12,909 bases of DNA from a virus (lineage: Duplodnaviria; Heunggongvirae; Uroviricota; Caudoviricetes): the IMG/VR virus record IMGVR_UViG_2579779007_000005; one strand, 5' to 3'. The notes under the pieces were generated by a model that saw only the letters and a list, made by a program, of their open reading frames with translations, did not search any database and was not told the origin of the DNA. Shown here piece after piece: positions 1 to 12,684 of this stretch. Numbering within the stretch: position 1 is the stretch's first letter; each line of letters starts with the position of its first letter. The position numbers and the translations under genes are program-made.

Positions 1-163
1 AGTTTGCTCCTGCCATAACGTGAAGAAGCAATGACCTGATGGTCTGTGACTTCCCTACGCTGGCATTATCCAGATCAGGTGATACGGGTATTTCTTACTA
101 ATTTTTGTTATCAGTTGATAATTAATAAGTTTTTAAGCATATAAGAATTAAAAACCTCAAAAA

Positions 164-230
164 TGACCACACAACTGACCACACATTTCGTTGAAGCCCT
201 ACGAACAACGACGAACAATAACAAACAAAA
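164..230. repeat. Tandem direct repeats near the left end: TGACCACACA x2 and 10-bp-phased ACGAACAA x2 with a degenerate third copy
   Basis: TGACCACACA at 164-173 and 176-185. ACGAACAA at 201-208 and 211-218, followed by the degenerate ACAAACAA at 221-228. Confidence 0.4.
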
Positions 231-821: not shown

Positions 822-1130
822 CTAGTACTCAGGAAGATTTTCTAAATTATCCTTAGATGTACCATTGGCTCTAGTTGTAATGTAATCAATGTTGTTAACA
901 CGGTCTTTAACCACTTTTTGACCCTTCTTCCACTTACCGTCATCACCTATGAAAATGGTGTAAAACGTATAACCACTATCGATCTTATTCACTACCCACT
1001 GCCGTGTTTCTGATACCCCTCCCCCAACAGTATCCCCCTTATCAACATGCACATACACATGGGTAATGTGAGTGTGCTTGTCGTTATATCGGACTTTAGA
1101 AATAAGGTAATCAGCCCATTTATCAATCAT
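822..1130 (-). CDS. AT-rich cargo gene of unknown function (about 102 aa from ATG 1130; the ORF extends to a TTG at 1184, giving 120 aa)
   Basis: ORF immediately downstream of terL, with visibly lower GC than the packaging genes. The ATG at 1130 has a GGTGG SD-like sequence; the TTG at 1184 has AGGAAG at about 9 nt. Stop TAG 824-822 is followed by a terminator. No recognisable domain. Confidence 0.45.
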   Translation of the reverse strand: MIDKWADYLISKVRYNDKHTHITHVYVHVDKGDTVGGGVSETRQWVVNKIDSGYTFYTIFIGDDGKWKKGQKVVKDRVNNIDYITTRANGTSKDNLENLPEY

Positions 1131-1279
1131 ATTCCACCATAAGTTTGAACAGGAAAAGTCCTGCAATACTCTTATAAACAACAAAACAGCGGCTTCCTAC
1201 CCCACGATGGTAATATAGTGATCTAGAGCAATTTATATTTCCGATAACATCGATATAACCCCACATTTACACTCTATTC

Positions 1280-2941
1280 TCAAATCCCATTAAATAAAGC
1301 CAACCGTTCTTTGTGGCTATCGCTCATATCGAATGCAAATTCCTCATGCTCTGCCTGGAATGTGCCAAACGCCATCAGCGCCGCAACGCTCGGGTCTATC
1401 TTGTTGGATGATTTTTTCTTGTTCGGCTTGATATTGGCGTTCGCGTCACTCTGCATCACAACATTACTCATTGACCAAGCCATCACCGGATCACCACGAT
1501 GTACAATCACCTTCCGGTTAACAAAAACTTCGAACGATTTCGCCGCCGGACTGAAACGAAGGTATGTTTGCGGGAACGGCTCCACCTCAAATCCTGCACC
1601 CTGTAGCTGCGTCCTCAAGTGCGTGGCGTTCCATGTATCGAAGCCCACCAGCCTGATATTGAAATTCTCTGCATCCACCATGATGTCATCACGGATACGG
1701 TCATAATCAATGCAGTCACCCGGTGTTGTGCGTATCCAGCCCGCCTTTACCCACTGGCGATAGATGGCGCGGTTTTTATTGGCGGGGTTCTGTAGCTGAA
1801 ATTCTGGTAGATAGTGACGGGAAACCAGCATAATCTTTTTACCGACCGGGAAGGCATAGCACACGCTGGAAATATCGCTGGTTGATGATAAGTCCAGCCC
1901 CGCGTAGCACTCCTGCCCGTATAAATCCGCCTCCGCGAACGTTCCGGCGCACTCCGCCCATGCACCGTTACCCATCCACGGCGTAGCCCCCTGACACCAG
2001 ATATTGAATCGCTTGGTGAGCATTTCCACCCACTGCGACGGAATACCCCGCGCTTTCTGGATGGTTGAGGCCAGTTTTTCACGATCTACGGAAACATCGA
2101 TATTGGGATTCGCCTTTATCCACATCGCCGGATCGTCAACCTCGCTTTCATCATCCAGCTCATAAATCAGAACGAACATGGATTCGTTCACCTCTTCACC
2201 ATCCAGTATCTGGCAGCAATAGTCGTAGTGTTGTTTACAGGCTGAAACAACGTTGCTCCCCGATGTGGTGATGGCAAATAACAGCCCCTCTGGGCGTGCC
2301 CCCATTCCCAGTTCAAGCGCGGAATAAACACCGTTGTCAGGGTGCAGGTGATATTCATCCACAATGGCAAGGCTCGGGTTTGTACCTTCAATGGTTGCCG
2401 CTTTTGCTGCCAGCGGCTTTAACAGGCTGTTGGTTTTCGGGTGTATCACCTTGTGTGCCTGAATATTTACCCGCTTTCGTAACGGTCGGGATAAAAGGCA
2501 CATCTGACGCGCATCATCAAACACGATCCGCGCCTGATCACGACTCACGGCGGCGGTGTAAATATCCTGCTGCCCGTTTTCCATAACCAGAAACCAGTTA
2601 GCCAGGATAGCGGCGACCGTGGATTTGGCATTTTTTCGCGGTACTTCAATGAATGCGCTGGTGTATTTGCGCCGTCCGGTGGCCTTAACCTTAAAGCCCA
2701 GGATGCACGCAAAGGCGAACTGCTGCCACGGCTCCAGCTCAATGGGGCTACCACGCATTGCGCCTTTTACGTGCGGACACACCCTGGAAAAGGCAATAAA
2801 CCGCTCAACGACCTCCGGATCGAACGTGTAAAGGGGGTTTTCAAGGTCAGAAAAATACCGTTTAACGGCCTGTTTCAGTCGTTTACAGGCCGTAATTTTG
2901 CCGTTTTTTACGCCTTCTGCGTACTCATGCCAGGCGGTCAA
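1280..2941 (-). CDS. terL: Terminase large subunit, HK97-like (553 aa), apparently TTG-initiated
   Basis: Conserved N-terminal region WHEYAEGVKNGKITACKRL, Walker-like VPRKNAKST, and a C-terminal nuclease-like region. The most upstream in-frame start is TTG 2941-2939, preceded by GAGGA SD at a 5-nt spacer. There is no in-frame ATG/GTG before residue 63. It overlaps terS by 17 nt. Confidence 0.9.
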   Translation of the reverse strand: MTAWHEYAEGVKNGKITACKRLKQAVKRYFSDLENPLYTFDPEVVERFIAFSRVCPHVKGAMRGSPIELEPWQQFAFACILGFKVKATGRRKYTSAFIEVPRKNAKSTVAAILANWFLVMENGQQDIYTAAVSRDQARIVFDDARQMCLLSRPLRKRVNIQAHKVIHPKTNSLLKPLAAKAATIEGTNPSLAIVDEYHLHPDNGVYSALELGMGARPEGLLFAITTSGSNVVSACKQHYDYCCQILDGEEVNESMFVLIYELDDESEVDDPAMWIKANPNIDVSVDREKLASTIQKARGIPSQWVEMLTKRFNIWCQGATPWMGNGAWAECAGTFAEADLYGQECYAGLDLSSTSDISSVCYAFPVGKKIMLVSRHYLPEFQLQNPANKNRAIYRQWVKAGWIRTTPGDCIDYDRIRDDIMVDAENFNIRLVGFDTWNATHLRTQLQGAGFEVEPFPQTYLRFSPAAKSFEVFVNRKVIVHRGDPVMAWSMSNVVMQSDANANIKPNKKKSSNKIDPSVAALMAFGTFQAEHEEFAFDMSDSHKERLALFNGI

Positions 2942-3281
2942 GCTCGTCCTCTTCCTCTGTTTCCGGTGGATTTCTGCGGCGGCTTACCGGGTCAAAACCC
3001 AGCAAAGAAGCCATTTTGATCATTATTCTTTCTGCGTCAGCCTTTGCGCTCAGTGCGGGGTTTCTGCTCTCGCTGCCCTGACTGTTAACAATGCTGAACC
3101 CGCGCGTCGCAAGGTCTTCGACGGCTTTGCGGTATATGGAGTAGTTAACACAATACAGTTCCAGATTGCTCCAGTCGGCGGGGGTAAGGTCTTCCCGCCC
3201 GGAAAGCTGGCGCGATTTTTCCTTCCACTGCCTGACCGCGATTTCATCCAGGTAAGCGGGGGCTTTTGGTGGTCTTGCCAT
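2925..3281 (-). CDS. terS: Terminase small subunit (118 aa)
   Basis: The start is taken as the internal ATG 3281-3279 (MARPPKAPAYLDEIAVRQWKE...) rather than the ATG at 3422, because the upstream 47 codons read like AT-rich intergenic DNA. P27-type TerS-like N-terminus and acidic C-terminal tail (ETEEEDELDRLA). Stop TGA 2927-2925 overlaps terL. Confidence 0.75.
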   Translation of the reverse strand: MARPPKAPAYLDEIAVRQWKEKSRQLSGREDLTPADWSNLELYCVNYSIYRKAVEDLATRGFSIVNSQGSESRNPALSAKADAERIMIKMASLLGFDPVSRRRNPPETEEEDELDRLA

Positions 3282-3332
3282 GTTCTTTTTTCGTCCAATT
3301 ATTTTCAAAAAAATTACTGTGCACAAAAATTT

Positions 3333-3392
3333 GAGGGGGCGGTCGGTGTCCGGCAGGGACGGTTTCGTCCTGAAAACCACCCCCACCCCCTC
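3333..3392. other. Candidate cos/packaging-site element in the HNH-terS intergenic region
   Basis: Inverted repeat GAGGGGGCGG (3333-3342) / CCACCCCCTC (3383-3392) with one mismatch, flanking the palindrome GGACGgtttCGTCC (3357-3370). It lies 50-110 bp upstream of terS inside a 288-bp non-coding gap (3282-3569). Confidence 0.3.
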
Positions 3393-3569
3393 TGACGGCC
3401 TCACCAGCGATTGCGAAAACATTCCATGACCTCGCGGTCACGGTCGGTTAATCGCTTCGCTGTGGTGCGTTTTGTGCGCCCTGTCCTGTTGGCTTTGTGC
3501 TCTGTCTCCTGTGTCTTCCATGTGTCACGCTGCCTTATCAGTCCACGTATCAGCCTGGTTTGCTCCTGT

Positions 3570-4010
3570 TCAGTCATCATCACCATACATCCAGTCGTTA
3601 CGGTGTGCCGCCCGTTCTTCCTGCTCGCGATACATGCCCGCTTTACGGTTTGCTTTCGTGGCTGGATCTTCCCATGTCGTCTTACGGTTGTGGCACGTCT
3701 GGCACAATGCCTGGTGATTCCACTCAGGCCAGAAGAGAACATCACCGCCGCCATTGATGGGAATGATGTGATCCACCACAAGAGCTGGTGTATAAATACC
3801 CTTAGCCAGACAACGCACGCATAACGGGTTTTTGCTCAGGTACAGGGCGCGGTATTTGTCCCACTGTCGGGAATACCCACGTGCGCGGCGGTGTCCCCGT
3901 CTGGCATCCTCTGCACGCCATGCAGCCCGCCTGTGCTCTTCACACTTGCCGGACTTCACGCGCTTATTACAGCCCGGCTCAGTGCATCGCCTTAATGGTT
4001 GCCACGGCAT
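3570..4010 (-). CDS. HNH endonuclease, terminase-associated (146 aa)
   Basis: HNH/zinc-finger motifs: CVRCL...DHIIP...N...H...CQTCHNRK and N-terminal CTEPGC...C. It lies directly upstream of terS-terL, as in HK97-like cos packaging modules. Confidence 0.85.
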   Translation of the reverse strand: MPWQPLRRCTEPGCNKRVKSGKCEEHRRAAWRAEDARRGHRRARGYSRQWDKYRALYLSKNPLCVRCLAKGIYTPALVVDHIIPINGGGDVLFWPEWNHQALCQTCHNRKTTWEDPATKANRKAGMYREQEERAAHRNDWMYGDDD

Positions 4011-4312
4011 CAGTACACCCCCACATCACGATAAACCGACCAGAGCGCAGAAATAGCCATAGGCAGTTCCGAGTGCTCAACTGGTGAAACCGCTTCCCGG
4101 TTCTCGTACAGAAAAGCGATGTACATCAGGCAACCAACACGTATTGCCGGGGTAAATTCCAGGCCGTCTTCAAAACGTTTCCCGATATGCTTCTGGCAGG
4201 CTTCCAGCGCCGCATCGGTATATATTTGCAGAAGTTCAACCTCACCATAAAAATCATCATCAAGGCGAAGATGGGCCATTACTTCATTAAGCGTAATTCT
4301 GGATTCACTCAT
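4010..4312 (-). CDS. gp6-like head-tail connector/adaptor protein (100 aa)
   Basis: ATG 4312-4310 (MSESRITLNEVMAHLRLDDD...) overlaps the portal stop by 8 nt; its TGA overlaps the HNH ATG (TGATG). Size and position match phage gp6-like connectors. Confidence 0.65.
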   Translation of the reverse strand: MSESRITLNEVMAHLRLDDDFYGEVELLQIYTDAALEACQKHIGKRFEDGLEFTPAIRVGCLMYIAFLYENREAVSPVEHSELPMAISALWSVYRDVGVY

Positions 4313-5519
4313 CTTTTTCACCTTTAATTTCCACAGTCTGCTTCCATGCCTGGCTGAACTCGTCACCCCCTTCACGCGGCGGCATACCCTCACGCTCACG
4401 GGCTTCGTTCGGATTCATGATCCCGTTCTTAATCCCTTTCTCATACGTGGCATAACGTTCGGTGGGTGTGGCGCGTAATAAATCGGCTGAATCAAACTCA
4501 ACCAGATAACGGGTACCAGGTACGGGAGAAGCCACCAGCAAAGCGGCCTTGATTTGCTGTTCGAAGTTCGCCAGCCATGGGCGCATTGTCATGGTCAGAA
4601 ACGCGCGGCTTGCCTCGCTGAAATTGCTGTAGGTGCTGTTGCTGTATTCCTGCAGAAAAATAGGCGATACGTTGAACATGCGGGCGATGTCTTCAATGGA
4701 GAAGCGACGGGAGGCCAGCCATTCCGCATCCTGGTTACTCATTCCCAGTTGCTTGTAATCCATGCCCCCTTCAAGGATTGGCGTTTTTCCGGCATTTTTC
4801 GCCCCCTTGTAGCGTTCCAGAGCATCTAATGCCTGTTTACCTTTCACGCCGTCCAGCCATTCGCCTGACGTGATAATCCCTGCCGCCATCATGCCATCTT
4901 TCATAATGCTGGCTCCGTGGCGCTGTTGAGCAAGGCCAAGCCCAAGTGCCTCACGGCAAATCGTGACGGGGGAGCGCCCCAGAAAGCCATCATCCGAGGC
5001 ATAGCGGAGATGCAGAACTTCTTCCTGTAAATACGTGCGCACCGTTCCTGTATAGGGTTCGGTGATGGTATATCGGTATTTGTGTGCGCCTGTGCGTTCC
5101 GGTACAACACACCCCGGCGCATAAGGATGAAGTGATTTTGGCTGCCCGTCCCGCCCCCACTCAATAACCGCATAGGCGTTACCGTTCAGCAGGCAGTGAC
5201 GCATCATTGTGCGTTTAAACTGGTAAGGTGTCTGGCATGAATTAGGCTGCTCATTCAGCAGAATATCTACCGGGTGACTGTCCAGCCATTCCCGCGCCTC
5301 TCTGCCCTTGTCATTACGTACCAGATACAGATAACACGGCATCGTGGCCACCGCCTCAGCGATGACAGAAACCGCGTTCATCACTGCAGGCAATGATTCA
5401 GCCGTCCCGGCAGAAACATATTCTCCGGATCCGGTATTCGGTACGCCGGACAGCGCCAGAAAATCATCAATGGACAGGTTACGCTGCTCGCTTTTTTTAC
5501 GACTAAAAGGCCACCACAT
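4305..5519 (-). CDS. HK97-family portal protein (404 aa)
   Basis: ATG 5519-5517 is tightly coupled to the protease stop; the TTG at 5609 listed in the track is rejected. Size and position fit a portal. The stop overlaps the connector ATG. Confidence 0.8.
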   Translation of the reverse strand: MWWPFSRKKSEQRNLSIDDFLALSGVPNTGSGEYVSAGTAESLPAVMNAVSVIAEAVATMPCYLYLVRNDKGREAREWLDSHPVDILLNEQPNSCQTPYQFKRTMMRHCLLNGNAYAVIEWGRDGQPKSLHPYAPGCVVPERTGAHKYRYTITEPYTGTVRTYLQEEVLHLRYASDDGFLGRSPVTICREALGLGLAQQRHGASIMKDGMMAAGIITSGEWLDGVKGKQALDALERYKGAKNAGKTPILEGGMDYKQLGMSNQDAEWLASRRFSIEDIARMFNVSPIFLQEYSNSTYSNFSEASRAFLTMTMRPWLANFEQQIKAALLVASPVPGTRYLVEFDSADLLRATPTERYATYEKGIKNGIMNPNEAREREGMPPREGGDEFSQAWKQTVEIKGEKDE

Positions 5520-5520
5520 A

Positions 5521-6081
5521 TCACAACCCCGCCAGGTCAGCCCAGCGATGACGATTATTTCCTGCCGGGCGTAATTCAGGGTGCAGTGCAAACAACGAAC
5601 GGTGGGCAATCTCCACGCCGGATTCGGGATAAGCAGGCATTGACGTTATCGTGATTTCACGGAGTTCTGCAGCGGTAACAGTGCGCAGATACGGTTTTTG
5701 CGCGATATTCCACTCCTCGCATAATGCGCGAAAGCCAAAGCTCATTCCTGTAATGTCGCCACGCTCCACCAGCGTAAGCACATCTTTTCCAAGCTGGGTA
5801 TTTGGCGGTGTCAGTTCAAAACGTAACCCGGTGTTATCCTCAGTCAATACCAGAGTGCCGGATTTGGTGCGCCCCAGCAGTTGGGTATAGTCATGCTCAT
5901 ACAGGCAGCGCACATCATTACCCGCCACCAGATAGTCAGCAAAAGCCCCCGGCGTGAACTGTTCGCGGAATTCGTCCCAGATAATTTCTGAAAGGCTGTT
6001 CCAGCGAACGGCATATCCCACCAGCTTTTTATTGCTGGCGGTCAGTTCAGATGTGCGGATTTCAAAATCGGTGTTTTTCAT
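5521..6081 (-). CDS. HK97-family prohead maturation protease (186 aa)
   Basis: ATG 6081-6079 with AGGGGA SD. The N-terminal pattern ...KLVGYAVRWNSLSEI... resembles HK97 gp4-type proteases. It sits between the capsid and portal genes; its stop (5523-5521) is 1 nt from the portal ATG. Confidence 0.8.
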   Translation of the reverse strand: MKNTDFEIRTSELTASNKKLVGYAVRWNSLSEIIWDEFREQFTPGAFADYLVAGNDVRCLYEHDYTQLLGRTKSGTLVLTEDNTGLRFELTPPNTQLGKDVLTLVERGDITGMSFGFRALCEEWNIAQKPYLRTVTAAELREITITSMPAYPESGVEIAHRSLFALHPELRPAGNNRHRWADLAGL

Positions 6082-6098
6082 CGGTGTATCCCCTGAAG

Positions 6099-6124
6099 CT
6101 AAAAAAGGAGGCCGAAGCCTCCTT
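6099..6124 (-). terminator. Intrinsic terminator with a UUCG tetraloop immediately after the capsid gene, upstream of the protease
   Basis: Minus-strand RNA reads UAA-UGAGC-AAGGAGGC-UUCG-GCCUCCUU-UUUU: an 8-bp stem (plus 6105-6112 / 6117-6124), tetraloop, then a U-run (plus A-run 6101-6106). It lies 19 nt before the protease ATG. Confidence 0.55.
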
Positions 6125-6129
6125 GCTCA

Positions 6130-7275
6130 TTACTCACCAGCCTGAATTTCCAGAATCTTGATGGCGTTCGAATCCACCACACCACCGCCCAGATATTTCT
6201 GGGTATAGATGTTAATGAATCCGGGTTCGCTGAAGTCCGGACGGGTACGCGTACCGGTTTCATGGTCAACGATGAAATAACCGCGCTTAAAGTCACCTAC
6301 TGCAATCACACCGTCCGGAATAAATTCCAGATATTCAACCGGAAGCCCCAGCAGAGAATCAGGATCACCAGCCTGTAAACGATCGCGCCAGATGTAATCA
6401 CCAGTGGCATTTTTCAGTTTTTGTGCGGAGGCGGCTGTATTTGAGTTCATCACCCATACAGCTTTTTTGCGGTACTTATTGCGCAGCGTAAATTTCAGGT
6501 CAATCAGCATGTCGGCGCTGAGACTGCCAGTAACTTTTTTCGTCTGGAGCGTACCGAAAGGACGGGTTTTGTCGTTATCCGCAGTGCGCGGGAACGCCAG
6601 GAAACCTTTAGCTTTTTTCTCGCCATCACCGGAAACCAGATCCGTTTCTTCGGTATCAACGAAAGTGTCGCCAATTTCAGAAGATAACCAGCTCATAATA
6701 TCGACTTCGGAAAAATCGATAATTTCCTGAGTGGTTTTCGGGTAAGCGTAGATCGGATACAGGCGGATGCTGACTTCGTTCAGTTTCGGCGTTGCCGTCT
6801 GGTTACGTGCCGCACCTTCCTCGCCATGCTCAACCACCGCGCCACCAGCGGAAACCAGTTGCTTAAATTCATTGCTGTGAATGGTTTTAACAGTACAGAT
6901 TTTACGCATCACCGATTCATCAGAAAGCTGACGCATAATTTCTCTGTTCAGTTCCGGGATAACCGTATAACCACCATCAGCCGGGACACTGCCGGACAGG
7001 TTGCGGGTTTCCCCGGTCAGAATGTAAGAGCGCAGTTCGTCTTTGGTGATTTTCTCTTCGACGGAAACACCTGGCTGGTTACGTTCTTCATCCGCAACAG
7101 CTTCAAGACGGGAGATTTCTGTGTCGAGGGAATCGGCTTTTGCACGCAGTTCATCAAACTGTTTGCCCTCGTCATCGTTCAGGCTGCGGTTTTCACTGTC
7201 GGCTTTTTCCAGCAGGGAGCGCATCTGGTTTTTCAGGGCGTTTTTTTGCTGGCGGAGTTCGATTAATTTCTTCAT
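6130..7275 (-). CDS. HK97-fold major capsid protein with an N-terminal coiled-coil delta (scaffold) domain; 381 aa
   Basis: The N-terminus MKKLIELRQQKNALKNQMRSLLEKA...ISRLEAVADEERN is a typical helical delta domain, followed by an HK97-like body. ATG at 7275 is chosen over the in-frame TTG 7362 and ATG 7350 on homology-type grounds; the start is uncertain. Stop TAA 6132-6130. Confidence 0.85.
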   Translation of the reverse strand: MKKLIELRQQKNALKNQMRSLLEKADSENRSLNDDEGKQFDELRAKADSLDTEISRLEAVADEERNQPGVSVEEKITKDELRSYILTGETRNLSGSVPADGGYTVIPELNREIMRQLSDESVMRKICTVKTIHSNEFKQLVSAGGAVVEHGEEGAARNQTATPKLNEVSIRLYPIYAYPKTTQEIIDFSEVDIMSWLSSEIGDTFVDTEETDLVSGDGEKKAKGFLAFPRTADNDKTRPFGTLQTKKVTGSLSADMLIDLKFTLRNKYRKKAVWVMNSNTAASAQKLKNATGDYIWRDRLQAGDPDSLLGLPVEYLEFIPDGVIAVGDFKRGYFIVDHETGTRTRPDFSEPGFINIYTQKYLGGGVVDSNAIKILEIQAGE

Positions 7276-7465
7276 GAAGGTTTTCTCGTATTGGTTAAGA
7301 TTCAGGACGTGAAACCAACACGGAGGGAGCGCGCCCGACACTCCCGGCATCTCGCAGATCAACCCAGCATCGCGCAGGGGTCAGGCGGCATTGTGGCGGC
7401 TCACGTCTGAGTGCCACGCTCCAACATATACATAAAAATCAGTATGTAAACACCTGTCAGTCAGA

Positions 7466-7493
7466 CCGAACAACCACGAAAGAACACGAACAA
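7466..7493. promoter_or_regulatory. Three 10-bp-phased direct repeats (CCGAACAA / CACGAAAG / CACGAACAA) between the divergent capsid and cargo promoters
   Basis: CGAACAA at 7467-7473, CGAAAGA at 7477-7483 and CGAACAA at 7487-7493, spaced one helical turn apart. The same ACGAACAA motif recurs in tandem at 201-218. Confidence 0.35.
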
Positions 7494-7497
7494 ATAA

Positions 7498-7528
7498 TTT
7501 ACAAAAGAAGTAAACCATGGCCTATTAT
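7498..7528 (+). promoter_or_regulatory. Candidate sigma70 promoter of the 168-aa cargo gene
   Basis: -35 TTTACA (7498-7503), 19-bp spacer, -10 TATTAT (7523-7528). The spacer is long, so this is tentative. Confidence 0.3.
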
Positions 7529-7559
7529 TGCTGTCTCTGACTACAACAAAGGACGCATC

Positions 7560-8066
7560 ATGAATTTAAGCGCAATGGCATACCCTGATACTTTCATAAT
7601 TAATGGCGAATCATTCAGAGGTAAAAGAAACGCAAAAGAAAACAAGGTATTAATTCCATATACAAATGAACCGGAAGTAACTATTGGTCAACACATTATC
7701 CAGCGTGTCGGTAAAAACGAGATAAATCTAAAAATTATAGATATGAAGTTGCTTCCCAATGGAACCCTCAGACAGGGAACCAACCATCCAAATATGTTGA
7801 CTCTCTATATTGAAAATATCACGGGAAATGAACATATGACGCCAACTAAAAGTAATACATTTAACATTGGTTCAATTAGTGGTGATCAAGTGCAGATAGG
7901 TGAGCATAACCATATGCTGGTAAACATCAGCATCACTGAACTGGTTGAAAAAGTCGCTAAATCGGGGGATGTACAAGCCAAATCAGTATTAAAGCAGTTA
8001 CTGGAAAACAGTACCGTTGCCAGCATTGTTGGGGCTGGCGCAAGTGCCCTAATAGGCTTACTGTAA
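7560..8066 (+). CDS. AT-rich cargo gene of unknown function (168 aa) with a C-terminal hydrophobic Gly/Ala-rich tail; candidate accessory or defence-type effector
   Basis: ATG 7560 with AAGGA SD at a 6-nt spacer. It is the only substantial plus-strand gene in the island and is visibly more AT-rich than its neighbours. The C-terminus STVASIVGAGASALIGLL looks like a glycine-zipper membrane segment. It is bounded by its own promoter region and a terminator. Confidence 0.7.
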   Translation: MNLSAMAYPDTFIINGESFRGKRNAKENKVLIPYTNEPEVTIGQHIIQRVGKNEINLKIIDMKLLPNGTLRQGTNHPNMLTLYIENITGNEHMTPTKSNTFNIGSISGDQVQIGEHNHMLVNISITELVEKVAKSGDVQAKSVLKQLLENSTVASIVGAGASALIGLL

Positions 8067-8072
8067 AAAAAT

Positions 8073-8093
8073 GGCCTGGATTTTACCAGGCCT
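8073..8093. terminator. Bidirectional rho-independent terminator between the convergent 82-aa gene and the 168-aa cargo gene
   Basis: Stem GGCCTGG (8073-8079), loop ATTTTAC, stem CCAGGCC (8087-8093), flanked by AAAAAAA upstream and TTTATTATTTT downstream on the plus strand. Confidence 0.55.
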
Positions 8094-8101
8094 TTATTAT
8101 T

Positions 8102-8350
8102 TTACCGTTTCACGGGATCGCGCATTCTGCGCCTTATTTTCCACAGATATTCGATCATTGCTTCCACCTGCTCACGGTTGGTTGCGAAAATTTCCCCGGT
8201 CAGTGAGCTACGCAGAAAATCATGATGATCCACAAAAAACAACGCATCGGAAGAAAGCAGACGGCGATATTTTTTTGCTGTCATGGTTTCCAGATCATCA
8301 AAATCATGAAACTTTTTATGTTGCTGGACTTCTTCAAATGTCACTGGCAT
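8102..8350 (-). CDS. Hypothetical protein (82 aa)
   Basis: ATG 8350-8348 preceded by a G-rich SD (minus strand CAGGGGGGGG); stop at 8102, followed by a hairpin terminator at 8073-8093. Confidence 0.5.
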   Translation of the reverse strand: MPVTFEEVQQHKKFHDFDDLETMTAKKYRRLLSSDALFFVDHHDFLRSSLTGEIFATNREQVEAMIEYLWKIRRRMRDPVKR

Positions 8351-8367
8351 GCCCCCCCCTGTTGTCG

Positions 8368-8793
8368 CTAAAACGGTATGTTGTCCCCGTACGGATCATC
8401 GTGCTGACCCGTCTGCTGTTTTGCCCTGTTCAGTGCGTCAGTCGCCTGGTTCTGCTGGCCTTTTTTGCCGCCTGGTCGCACCGTTCGCGCACTGATTACG
8501 CTGTCTGCGATAACCTGCCAGCCTTGCCGAGTTTCGCCGTTCTGGCCTGTCCACTGACTTACCTGCATGTTACCCGCCACGCTCACCAGTTCGCCTTTGT
8601 GGTGTTTTGCCAGTGCTTCGGCCTGTCTGCCAAACGCCAGAACAGAAAGCCACATCGTCACCGCACCATCATCAGCCTGACTGCATGGCAGGGGTACTGC
8701 CATACTTACCATCGCCATTTGTGTACCCTTGCTGGTGGTCTTTAACTGCGGGTCATTTGCCAGCCGCCCGTAAGCGGCTATCTGTGCTGTCAT
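8368..8793 (-). CDS. ssb: Single-stranded DNA-binding protein (SSB)-like, 141 aa
   Basis: ATG 8793-8791 with GGAGGG SD. OB-fold-like N-terminal segment (IAAYGRLANDPQL...WLSVLAFGRQAEALAKHHKGELVSVAGNMQVSQWTGQNGETRQGWQVIAD), a Gly/Gln-rich linker, and a C-terminal ...DDPYGDNIPF resembling the SSB acidic DDDIPF tip. Confidence 0.65.
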   Translation of the reverse strand: MTAQIAAYGRLANDPQLKTTSKGTQMAMVSMAVPLPCSQADDGAVTMWLSVLAFGRQAEALAKHHKGELVSVAGNMQVSQWTGQNGETRQGWQVIADSVISARTVRPGGKKGQQNQATDALNRAKQQTGQHDDPYGDNIPF

Positions 8794-9035
8794 GATTCCA
8801 TCCCTCCGGTGTTAACGTTGATGGTTGTCACCTGTTCCGCTTCGGCAATCTCCCGCTCTGTCAACGTGGCAAAATTTGCCGCCGCCGTGGTCATTAATGC
8901 GCTTATCAGTTCGGGATGTGCTTTCGCGTATCCTTCCCCGGCGTTGCGGTCGATGATTTTTATCGACACCCTTAACCAGTGTTCCGTCAAATCAAGAGCG
9001 TGCGATTGTGATTTTTTTGTGTGCTTCGCTGTCAT
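8790..9035 (-). CDS. Hypothetical protein (81 aa)
   Basis: ATG 9035-9033; its stop overlaps the SSB-like ATG (8793) in an ATGA arrangement, implying translational coupling. Confidence 0.5.
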   Translation of the reverse strand: MTAKHTKKSQSHALDLTEHWLRVSIKIIDRNAGEGYAKAHPELISALMTTAAANFATLTEREIAEAEQVTTINVNTGGMES

Positions 9036-9080: not shown

Positions 9081-9310
9081 CTTCACCTGTTCACCTTTTG
9101 ATATTTTCTCTTTTAATTCATAATGTTAATTGGTGAACAGTTTCACAAAAACTATTCACCAACTGTTCACCACTGTTCACCCTTGAAGCTCAATAAACAA
9201 TCAAAAAGGTGAACAGTGAATAGTTTGGTGAACAGTTCATAAATAACTGTTCACCCTATAATATACTGATATAAAAGATATTTATGACAGGGTGAACAGT
9301 GGTGAACAGT
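9081..9310. repeat. Iteron array, candidate origin of replication
   Basis: Nine perfect copies of the 9-mer GGTGAACAG or its complement CTGTTCACC: plus-strand CTGTTCACC at 9087, 9163, 9173 and 9247; GGTGAACAG at 9132, 9208, 9227, 9291 and 9301. Degenerate copies at 9081, 9152 and 9217. AT-rich spacers (for example 9256-9290) separate them. The array sits directly downstream of the primase/helicase stop. Confidence 0.6.
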
Positions 9311-11442: not shown

Positions 11443-11763
11443 TTATCCCCGATTTGAATCAGTATTCGCTTTCTTTATGGCATTTAATGCATCTGTGGCA
11501 TTTTCAATGGTGCACCGTAACGAAATATCAAACTGCCCAAGCATTGCCAGTAACAAACCGATATTACCCATATCAATGCGCATAGCCTTTTCGTCATAGT
11601 CCTCATTTTCTGACGCATGCCACATCAGGCTACCAATTGACGCAATACCCATTGATATATTGTCAGTAGCCCCATCCGCAGCGGAATAAACCTTTTTAGC
11701 AATATCATGCTCACAGTTAAAATGCGGATTAATCAGGTACTGGTAATTTGACATATCAGGCAT
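11443..11763 (-). CDS. Hypothetical protein (106 aa)
   Basis: ATG at 11763 overlaps the stop of the upstream 67-aa gene (translational coupling); stop TAA 11445-11443. No recognisable motif. Confidence 0.55.
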   Translation of the reverse strand: MPDMSNYQYLINPHFNCEHDIAKKVYSAADGATDNISMGIASIGSLMWHASENEDYDEKAMRIDMGNIGLLLAMLGQFDISLRCTIENATDALNAIKKANTDSNRG

Positions 11764-11959
11764 GGCACACCCCCTGACGAATACGGGCGGCGAATACCAT
11801 CACGCAGCCAGCCGGGGATTGCTGGCGTGCTTCCTGTTCGCTGGTGGCCACGATGTGAATCACGCGCGGTTGTGCGGTGCTCAGGGCGATAAAACGCCAG
11901 ATGTATTTATTCAGGTCGTGCGAGTCCCGCCCTTGCGGGTGTGTGGTATGATTTCTCAT
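11756..11959 (-). CDS. Hypothetical small protein (67 aa), first gene of the minus-strand early operon; faintly reminiscent of Icd-like small proteins found near primases in P4-like islands (unverified)
   Basis: ATG 11959-11957 preceded by GAGGT SD; stop TGA 11758-11756 overlaps the ATG of the next gene at 11763. This is the only credible part of the 306-aa track ORF 11756..12676. Confidence 0.45.
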   Translation of the reverse strand: MRNHTTHPQGRDSHDLNKYIWRFIALSTAQPRVIHIVATSEQEARQQSPAGCVMVFAARIRQGVCHA

Positions 11960-12055
11960 AGCTACCTCGATACGCTTTCTATCGTTGGTGGTTAGAAGCC
12001 CGGTTAGTGTTAGCGCACTGCCGGGTTTCGTCGTTTCTGCACCTTGCATCAACAA

Positions 12056-12108
12056 GGTGTTAAACACCAATTTAAGCCTAGGTGTTAAACACGTCAAGTG
12101 TTGAACAC
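12056..12108. promoter_or_regulatory. Three near-palindromic operator sites (GTGTT-N-AACAC) in the divergent intergenic region
   Basis: GTGTTAAACAC at 12057-12067, GTGTTAAACAC at 12082-12092 and GTGTTGAACAC at 12098-12108. The third overlaps the candidate -35 of the RHH promoter. Confidence 0.5.
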
Positions 12109-12129
12109 TTATTTTTTTTCCTGCATACT
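12101..12129 (+). promoter_or_regulatory. Candidate sigma70 promoter of the RHH gene
   Basis: -35 TTGAAC (12101-12106), 17-bp spacer, -10 CATACT (12124-12129); lies about 30 bp upstream of the ATG at 12159. Confidence 0.3.
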
Positions 12130-12158
12130 GCATTTGTTTTTTGTAAGGGGTACACAAC

Positions 12159-12338
12159 ATGGCGACAAAAGCAGTAAACGCAAAATCACAAACAGTTGCG
12201 GCAAGGGTTCCGCATGAAGTTATGAACAATGTTGAGGCGGTAAAAATGCCTGGTGAAAGTACAGGGCAGTTTGTAACAGCAGCATTAAAGCGAGAAGTTG
12301 AATACCGCCAGCGTCGCAAGGCCAAAGAGCAGGAGTAA
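12159..12338 (+). CDS. Small ribbon-helix-helix (Arc/CopG/MetJ-type) DNA-binding protein, putative repressor; 59 aa, below the ORF-track cutoff
   Basis: ATG at 12159 is preceded by SD AAGGGG (8-nt spacer) and an in-frame TAA at 12144-12146; stop TAA 12336-12338. The sequence TVAARVPHEVMNNVEAVKMPGESTGQFVTAALKREVEY fits the RHH pattern (beta-strand with R-V-P, helix A, G-x-S/T turn, helix B). Three palindromic operators lie directly upstream. Confidence 0.5.
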   Translation: MATKAVNAKSQTVAARVPHEVMNNVEAVKMPGESTGQFVTAALKREVEYRQRRKAKEQE

Positions 12339-12395
12339 CCATCACCAGCGCCGTGGTGCGGTGAACTGTGGCGCACAGGGTTACAGGTATCTACG

Positions 12396-12575
12396 ATGAC
12401 TGACAAATCATTAAAGAAATTATCCTCATCCAAGAAAAAACAACGCAAAAATGCGGTAAACGAACATGAACCGGAGAGATTCGCACCATGTGCGTTTATC
12501 CTTGAGAAGTACCTTAAAGAGTATTCTAGGAAAATACGCTCATTGCAGGCATGGCAGCGAATCGAGCCAGACTGA
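12396..12575 (+). CDS. Hypothetical small basic protein (59 aa), possibly co-transcribed with the RHH gene
   Basis: ATG at 12396 with only a weak AGG SD; stop TGA 12573-12575. It lies between the RHH gene and a plus-strand terminator at 12640-12667. Lys/Ser-rich N-terminus; no recognisable domain. Confidence 0.25.
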   Translation: MTDKSLKKLSSSKKKQRKNAVNEHEPERFAPCAFILEKYLKEYSRKIRSLQAWQRIEPD

Positions 12576-12639
12576 TAGCATTGCCCACCAGCCAACAACC
12601 TGGTATTCTGGATATGCTCAAGTTTAGTGTTATGCCACT

Positions 12640-12667
12640 GGCGACCGCCCTTGGTCGCCTTTGTTTT
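12640..12667 (+). terminator. Rho-independent terminator for the plus-strand RHH transcript
   Basis: Stem GGCGACC (12640-12646), loop GCCCTT, stem GGTCGCC (12653-12659), followed by TTTGTTTT. The minus strand has no T-run after the same hairpin, so it is probably unidirectional. Confidence 0.5.
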
Positions 12668-12684
12668 ATGTGTCATAGCCCCCC

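Follow-up and report, generated by a model that had tools for sequence, protein, structure and literature searches.

What might switch on the capsid and terminase genes of a phage satellite that makes its own capsids, and could the same protein also direct the satellite's excision? In Gram-negative phage-inducible chromosomal islands (PICIs), AlpA is a master activator that is needed for induction and activates its own promoter, and in EcCICFT073 AlpA overexpression triggers int-dependent excision while int expression is unchanged, which implies a direct, excisionase-like role (PMC6092414). Excisionases generally bind tandem repeats placed one DNA turn apart, and several of them also regulate transcription (PMC7498355; PMC11963761). 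Apl of phage 186, P2 Cox, P4 Vis and RdfS from an integrative and conjugative element use 10-11 bp direct repeats, bind them cooperatively and head to tail, and have sites both in att regions and at promoters (PMC7498355); RdfS activates transcription (PMC11963761). TorI, the winged-helix excisionase of KplE1, has five attL sites with the cores GTTCG, GATCG and GTCCG (PMC2951348). No description of the AlpA operator or of the capsid-operon promoter of Gram-negative PICIs was found in the literature searched, nor one of how the capsid and terminase genes of capsid-forming PICIs (cf-PICIs) are switched on. The subject here is IMG/VR record IMGVR_UViG_2579779007_000005, a stretch of 12,909 nucleotides (hereafter, the window) that belongs to an E. 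coli cf-PICI inserted in the thiM riboswitch. It contains two arrays of 10-bp repeats, one upstream of the capsid operon and one in the left attachment (att) arm, and on balance we lean towards reading both as AlpA operators that would couple excision with activation of the capsid operon, a reading built on sequence comparison. The two arrays and the gene for the proposed binder are as follows:

7466..7495, plus strand: capsid-upstream array of three 10-bp units, CCGAACAACC, ACGAAAGAAC and ACGAACAAAT
201..230, plus strand: left att-arm array of three 10-bp units, ACGAACAACG, ACGAACAATA and ACAAACAAAA
12685..12909, minus strand: alpA, encoding a 74-aa Phage_AlpA winged-helix protein (Pfam PF05930, 58.8 bits) with recognition helix SRTTRY

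The original prediction, made from the window alone, had noted repeats at 7467, 7477 and 7487 and a tandem in the same 10-bp phase at 201-218, and both were recovered. The period at the capsid operon is exactly 10 bp, with CGAACAA at 7467 and 7487 and a degenerate CGAAAGA at 7477, and in the left array ACGAACAA starts at 201 and 211. A third, degenerate left unit, ACAAACAA at 221, had not been listed. Every copy in both arrays is on the plus strand and keeps the exact 10-bp period. Exact CGAACAA occurs five times in the window, four of them inside the two arrays. A 7-mer with two phased clusters (10 or 20 bp) more than 500 bp apart arose in none of 1000 second-order Markov simulations, and a matrix made from the six units scored 37.5 and 34.9 bits at the arrays, against 14.2 bits for the next best site in the window; the simulation and matrix results therefore mark the repeats as real and not the product of chance. 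Each array thus has at least two direct repeats of the same orientation at 10-11 bp, as excisionase operators do (7466-7495 and 201-230), and alpA provides a gene for a small winged-helix recombination directionality factor within the element. The AlpA of the window also matches an AlpA family protein of known structure (PDB 8c3t, E 1.4e-7).

How far the capsid-upstream array is conserved was read from related islands, which are cited by locus number where one must be named (L001 and so on). A capsid-protein search of genome contigs gave one close relative, and diversity was drawn from a scan of viral contigs with a conserved hairpin sequence, which returned more than 120 loci; with E. coli loci added, 126 loci have both the hairpin and a TTTACA block, with 76 distinct unit sets, and the aligned upstream region comprises 99 unique sequences. 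Four further features frame the array:

7445..7450, minus strand: predicted -35 TTTACA from a sigma-70 scan, its TTT (7448-7450) conserved at 1.8-1.9 bits
7423..7428, minus strand: predicted -10 TATGTT, with T-A-T-x-T-T kept across lineages
7496..7506, plus strand: family-wide conserved block AATTTACAAAA, with an invariant TTTACA at 7498-7503, the right-hand limit of what is conserved upstream in the capsid module
7393..7417, minus strand: invariant 25-nt hairpin GTGGCACTCAGACGTGAGCCGCCAC (as RNA), the predicted 5' end of the capsid mRNA

The order of hairpin, -10, -35, about 15-20 variable bases, three 10-bp units and AATAATTTACAAA is fixed in the 126 loci, and in 123 of them the hairpin and TTTACA are 100 or 101 nt apart. 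Within the units, the A at 7470, 7480 and 7490 is nearly invariant (1.8-1.9 bits) and a G two bases earlier is partly conserved, giving a periodic G-x-A, while the unit sequences themselves differ by lineage (YGAAC, AAACAG, GGGTAA, RGTA and AACATGA). Phasing that is kept family-wide while the sequence is lineage-specific is the signature of a co-evolving DNA-binding protein. In the window, the array lies at about -51 to -80 of the predicted transcription start (~7416), with unit centres near -54, -64 and -74, and ends 15 bp upstream of the -35. The minus-strand pair TTTACA (7450-7445) and TATGTT (7428-7423), with a 16-bp spacer, is the only sigma-70-like site that the scan picks up in 7200-7650, and it displaces the promoter elements first put forward. 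Of those, the proposed -35 (CTGACA, 7460-7455) is present as a hexamer but its columns are unconserved in relatives and it is absent from the promoter scan, and the proposed -10 (TTTTAT, 7438-7433) reads TTTTTA at those positions; TTTTAT itself is at 7437-7432, again in unconserved columns. A rightward cargo promoter on the far side of the array, likewise proposed, did not emerge from the promoter scan of 7200-7650. Homology to other E. coli islands extends from the capsid start as far as 7506 and breaks off where the cargo differs; therefore, the array belongs to the capsid module. The boundary between the conserved module and the variable cargo falls exactly at the 7496-7506 block. The invariant TTTACA was considered as a general -35 for cargo genes and discarded, the cargo ATG of L003 being only 19 nt downstream. 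The hairpin, GTGGCGGCTCACGTCTGAGTGCCAC, does not vary among more than 120 viral contigs, not even in five bases that lie outside the search pattern, and could act as an mRNA stabiliser or protein target; the 147-nt capsid leader as a whole folds better than shuffled sequences (z = -2.8).

The lineage-specific units pair with the regulator of each island. AlpA proteins with a [CS]RTTRY helix are found with YGAAC units, SRSTRW with AAACAG, and SRSSRW and SRSAR with GGGTAA, and the HTH_17 Xis type (QTLANW) is found with RGTA units in 10 of 10 loci. The mean distance between units 1-2 (of 20 nt) is 6.3 for loci with the same AlpA helix and different Int, but 11.4 for different helices and the same Int (at least 85% identical); the corresponding values with Rep in place of Int are 8.3 and 11.1. 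The repeat thus covaries with the recognition helix of the directionality factor, the exceptions being the helper-embedded PICIs (HE-PICIs) L002 and L037. Pairs of the form YGAAC-N5-YGAAC occur at 1.74 per 10 kb in islands with a short AlpA, against 0.43 in those with a long AlpA and 0.08 in those of the Xis type. In short-AlpA islands these matches, ori iterons aside, are in the att arms, at the capsid promoter and immediately 5' of alpA. The last site, an exact CGAAC-N5-CGAAC-type pair (YGAAC-N5-YGAAC), is present just upstream of alpA in 12 of 13 short-AlpA loci, the only class with a clear pair in this position upstream of its regulator gene. In the Xis-type locus L089, RGTA units recur at the capsid promoter and in the int-proximal arm, the only such triple in 97 dereplicated loci (~1.2 Mb).

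Short-type alpA is preceded by a terminator-like hairpin and a T-run that reaches the start codon (L001 16759-16800; L003 about 17392-17430). The CGAAC-N5-CGAAC pair falls within the stem and loop of this leader, which seem to mask the ribosome-binding site, so that the hairpin could be an autoregulatory attenuator. Long-AlpA islands have arrays of 10-bp period about 270 bp upstream of alpA (GATGAACCGT three times, GGTGCTGTTA three times and TGAATGCTGT ten times; L029 8560-8830, L004 18760-18810), and one L004 stretch, GAATAACCAT GAACAAAGAT, closely resembles the capsid-upstream units of the same locus.

The second array is found where an excisionase would be expected to act. Its surroundings are:

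82..95, no strand assigned: 14-bp att core identity block ATACGGGTATTTCT, the island/chromosome junction within the thiM thiamine pyrophosphate (TPP) riboswitch, which recurs at the other island end
164..185, plus strand: doubled motif TGACCACACA x2, with a 12-bp period

Of 5426 complete E. coli genomes, 5425 contain window bases 1-95, host DNA that is annotated there as a riboswitch, and the left array is therefore about 105 bp inside the island junction; in exact terms, 201-230 is 106-135 bp inside it and 16 bp past the doublet. The island sits between thiM and rcnR. The doublet probably represents integrase arm-type sites, since in relatives the motif differs from one integrase type to another, with TGACTGCAC, TGTTTATACA, GCAATACAC, GATTGATACAC or GGTGTAGTTAAT taking its place where the integrase is a different one. 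The block of doublet and array has a co-oriented twin beside int in L001 and L006, and in SMS-3-5 and strain A41 the twin is just upstream of the int start in the same orientation. Therefore, 201-230 is in one att arm, next to the putative arm-type sites, and the twin array is in the other. Such a position fits the role at the island end that had been suggested for this copy; the alternative suggestion, that it acts on a gene beyond the window, we reject, as what lies past the junction is the host thiM riboswitch.

The insertion point is inside the TPP riboswitch aptamer, which was matched to window positions 35-169 with the real part at about 35-95. The 3' half of the riboswitch remains with thiM as a sub-threshold match to RF00059 (34.3 bits against a gathering threshold of 54.3), and the 5' half with the promoter side has come to lie at the opposite end of the island, about 15 kb off (20.6 bits; L001 19066-19171). 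The island thereby severs thiMD from its native leader. An Rfam scan of the window brought no family to its gathering threshold.

In their arrangement the two arrays fit a known class, the operators of dual-purpose excisionases (Apl, Cox, Vis, TorI and RdfS). P2 Cox activates the P4 late promoter, and Vis, a P4 homologue of AlpA, acts in both excision and late-promoter control. Apl and Cox, however, are of another sequence family and mainly repress at the lysis-lysogeny switch, whereas the target in the window is a satellite capsid/terminase operon. TorI offers a nearer comparison: sites I3-I5 of the K-12 KplE1 (CPS-53) element, GTTCG/GTTCG/GATCG, have an exact 10-bp period and end at the PintS -35 (L136 255-279), and GTTCG is the complement of the CGAAC of the window, in the same orientation towards the promoter. 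Like the AlpA proposed here, TorI is a small winged-helix excisionase that is active in recombination and in transcription. TorI represses the integrase promoter from sites directly against its -35, whereas the window array is 15 bp upstream of the -35 of a structural operon, which suggests activation, and arrays in both arms are not reported for KplE1. TorI may be viewed as a functional parallel and not as proof of a shared specificity. The X1-X1.5-X2 sites of lambda Xis are likewise three phased sites with a degenerate middle one that makes fewer specific contacts (PMC7498355), as in CGAACAA/CGAAAGA/CGAACAA, although in lambda the Xis sites are in one arm only and have no late-promoter role. 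Closer in sequence, the AlpA proteins of EcCICFT073 and of the cf-PICI EcCIEDL933 are of the same Pfam family as the window AlpA and 66% identical to it. In EcCICFT073, phased xAACAAC units lie beside the integrase doublets of both arms and another six lie between int and alpA, but its (different) capsid gene, unlike that of the window, has none of these arrays upstream. In HE-PICIs, a doubled 8-10-mer was described twice in co-orientation, flanking the attP centre, in the manner of TGACCACACA x2; adjacent 10-bp phased units were not reported, and the doubled motif was said to be absent from other PICIs (Tommasini et al. 2023, PMC10111431). Here, unlike in that account, every integrase type has its own doublet.

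How would one protein serve both arrays? AlpA, as a member of the excisionase/recombination-directionality class, would bind CGAAC(A) units as monomers arranged head to tail, one per helical turn. Helper phage would induce alpA expression and AlpA would accumulate. An AlpA filament on 201-230 and on the twin beside int, adjoining the integrase arm-type doublet, would put a bend in the att arms and steer Int towards excision, and a filament on 7466-7495 (-51 to -80) would switch on the capsid/terminase operon from its weak sigma-70 promoter, so that accumulation of AlpA would tie capsid production to excision. The weak -35 is left unobstructed, 15 bp from the array, unlike in the repressive arrangement of TorI, and activation is therefore the likelier outcome. 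The original idea that an Xis/AlpA-type protein binds the phased repeats accordingly stands strengthened in part, by the att-arm twin, the helix covariation and the parallel with TorI in core and period; that AlpA binds them and turns on the operon is what we infer.

A number of observations weigh against this interpretation. None of 5000 permutations of the helix labels reached the observed contrast in unit distance, but the pairs of loci share ancestry and are not phylogenetically independent. Window-like CGAACAAC units are found in the HE-PICIs L002, L020 and L116 despite their AlpA helices SRSRRW and GRRHRA, L037 combines these AlpA types with different units, and GGGTAA units occur with two types of regulator. 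Where AlpA is of the long type, the repeats in the att arms go with the type of integrase and are no clear mirror of the capsid units. A crude comparison of own and cross 20-mer identity in the 450 bp upstream of regulator genes gave 12.98 and 12.73, no general signal. Many other lineages have a terminator-like hairpin between unit 1 and the -35, which the lineage of the window lacks. The window ends at the alpA start codon, and the int-side arm and the alpA leader were read in relatives only. TorI represses rather than activates, is only distantly similar in sequence (31% identity to the window AlpA over 51 aa) and falls below the Pfam Phage_AlpA threshold. Finally, cf-PICIs are reported to produce packaged capsids when no inducing phage is present (bioRxiv 10.1101/2025.02.11.637232), so the capsid promoter may not strictly need high AlpA.

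Several of these exceptions would be accommodated if AlpA were a correlated marker and another sequence-specific factor, whether an island protein, a helper late activator or a host regulator, bound the units. The conservation of AATAATTTACAAA and of the third unit in all lineages, whatever the AlpA type, suggests such a shared factor, and the HE-PICIs that break the pairing of AlpA with units, the GGGTAA units common to two regulator types and the capsids reported without induction can be read in the same way. We nevertheless think this rather unlikely, as units 1-2 differ between lineages in step with the AlpA helix, over different Int and Rep backgrounds, and a host factor explains neither the lineage-specific units nor their presence in the att arms. 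The island proteins considered as binders were rejected in turn: the neighbouring phrog_1957 is acidic and almost unchanged across lineages whose units differ, the 306-aa putative repressor is absent from L001 and L006, whose arrays are the same, and EcCICFT073 has no DUF6387, so that neither of the latter two is needed to explain the pattern. An unbiased search for a protein common to GGGTAA-unit islands with different regulators yielded only Rep. The integrase itself is another candidate, with the units as arm-type sites for the Int N-terminal domain and Int regulating the packaging operon. Units are indeed found in both att arms beside int, as arm-type sites are, and in long-AlpA islands the arm repeats follow Int type. 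It is the separate doublet of 12-bp period, however, that varies with Int type and makes the better arm-site candidate; the GAAC units persist over three Int types with three doublets (TGACCACACA, TGACTGCAC and GGTGTAGTTAAT), and the capsid units disagree between islands with Int at least 85% identical and agree where the AlpA helix is shared (the 11.4 and 6.3 given above), all of which makes an Int operator improbable.

Would the units need a dedicated protein at all? As a phased, A-rich intrinsic bend or UP-like element they might aid RNA polymerase and the intasome directly, and the arrays are A-rich, helically phased and placed upstream of a weak -35 and in att arms, where bending matters. 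But the units contain no true A-tracts (AACAA), the letters conserved in period are G-x-A, the GGGTAA and AGGTA variants are not A-tracts, and pure curvature would not covary with a protein helix; we regard this explanation as very improbable. Least credible of all is that the arrays are iteron-like sites for Pri-Rep, comparable with P4 crr. The origin at 9088-9308, downstream of the D5-type primase-helicase gene, has nine exact copies of TGTTCACC, which we take to be the type I iteron octamer of phage P4, in both orientations and with a period of about 10 bp, and the ori iterons (GGTGAACAGT) have the TGTTC/GAACA pentamer in common with the units. The complement of the canonical units is TTGTTCG(T/G), however, and not TGTTCACC, and the units do not track Rep (distance 11.1 for the same Rep with different AlpA): L003 and L005 have a RepA-type helicase and unrelated TGCCGCAYTTAG iterons, and both their capsid promoters and their att arms retain GAAC units. 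Membership of the P4-type ori/crr iterons was rejected on these grounds. Two further known sites were compared with the array and dismissed. A P2 Ogr/P4 Delta late-promoter site (TGT-N12-ACA near -55) can be placed at 7455-7472, but the window has 6 matches to this pattern against 3.7 expected, and it is missing in relatives such as L002-L005. The AlpA of Pseudomonas is Q-like, acts at a single element between -35 and -10 and has its DNA-contact residues at 128-142 (PMC9371919); a 74-aa protein and triple repeats upstream of the -35 do not fit an antiterminator site of that kind, and only the name is shared.

The remainder of the window is that of a cf-PICI: the island has its own capsid, protease, portal, connector, HNH, TerS and TerL genes together with alpA and pri-rep, and no tail or lysis genes by Pfam, and the int of the module was read in near-identical relatives. 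It is laid out as follows:

822..7275, minus strand: packaging operon of major capsid, prohead protease, portal, head-tail connector, HNH, TerS, TerL and DUF3892 (Pfam and relatives' annotation)
12909 to 8102, minus strand: early operon of AlpA, the 306-aa protein, two small proteins, D5-type primase-helicase, origin, phrog_1231, SSB and phrog_1957
7560..8066, plus strand: phrog_5789, the only cargo gene, outside the conserved module
8073..8092, no strand assigned: intrinsic terminator, bidirectional, that separates the early operon (alpA to phrog_1957) from the cargo gene convergent with it

Being insulated by the 8073-8092 terminator, the capsid operon therefore needs its own promoter. The last early gene, phrog_1957 (82 aa, 8102-8350, minus strand), is also the final gene ahead of the capsid module in the relatives checked, and phrog_1231 is at 8790-9035 on the minus strand. 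A 224-aa plus-strand open reading frame (ORF) at 8071-8745 is probably spurious, as it overlaps the minus-strand SSB (8368-8793) and phrog_1957 genes. The 306-aa ORF is directly 3' of alpA (11756-12676, minus strand), where otherwise near-identical islands have an Icd-like/YlcI region, and its C-terminal 90 aa match the phage 'transcriptional repressor' families phrog_6196 and phrog_1743. Rosenbergiella sp. YN46 (L007) encodes a capsid protein 90% identical to that of the window, which fits the reported cross-genus spread of cf-PICIs.

The three units could be viewed more broadly as a family-wide address code, a tentative extension that we hold possible but doubtful. A G-x-A scaffold would come in at least 4-5 lineage variants (YGAAC, AAACAG, GGGTAA, RGTA and others), each matched to the AlpA/Xis helix of its island; one protein of 70-90 aa would then couple excision, its own expression and capsid firing, co-resident satellites would be orthogonal, and the invariant TTTACA block and 5' hairpin would give a shared host or helper input. 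No current view is overturned by these results. What the analysis provides is a candidate operator (CGAAC repeated every 10 bp), a promoter architecture for the packaging operon that is conserved in the 126 related loci, and a predicted regulon with four members, namely both att arms, the alpA leader and the capsid promoter. If AlpA does act at these sites, one small protein would time both excision and capsid production, and the family would offer matched protein/operator pairs of differing specificity.

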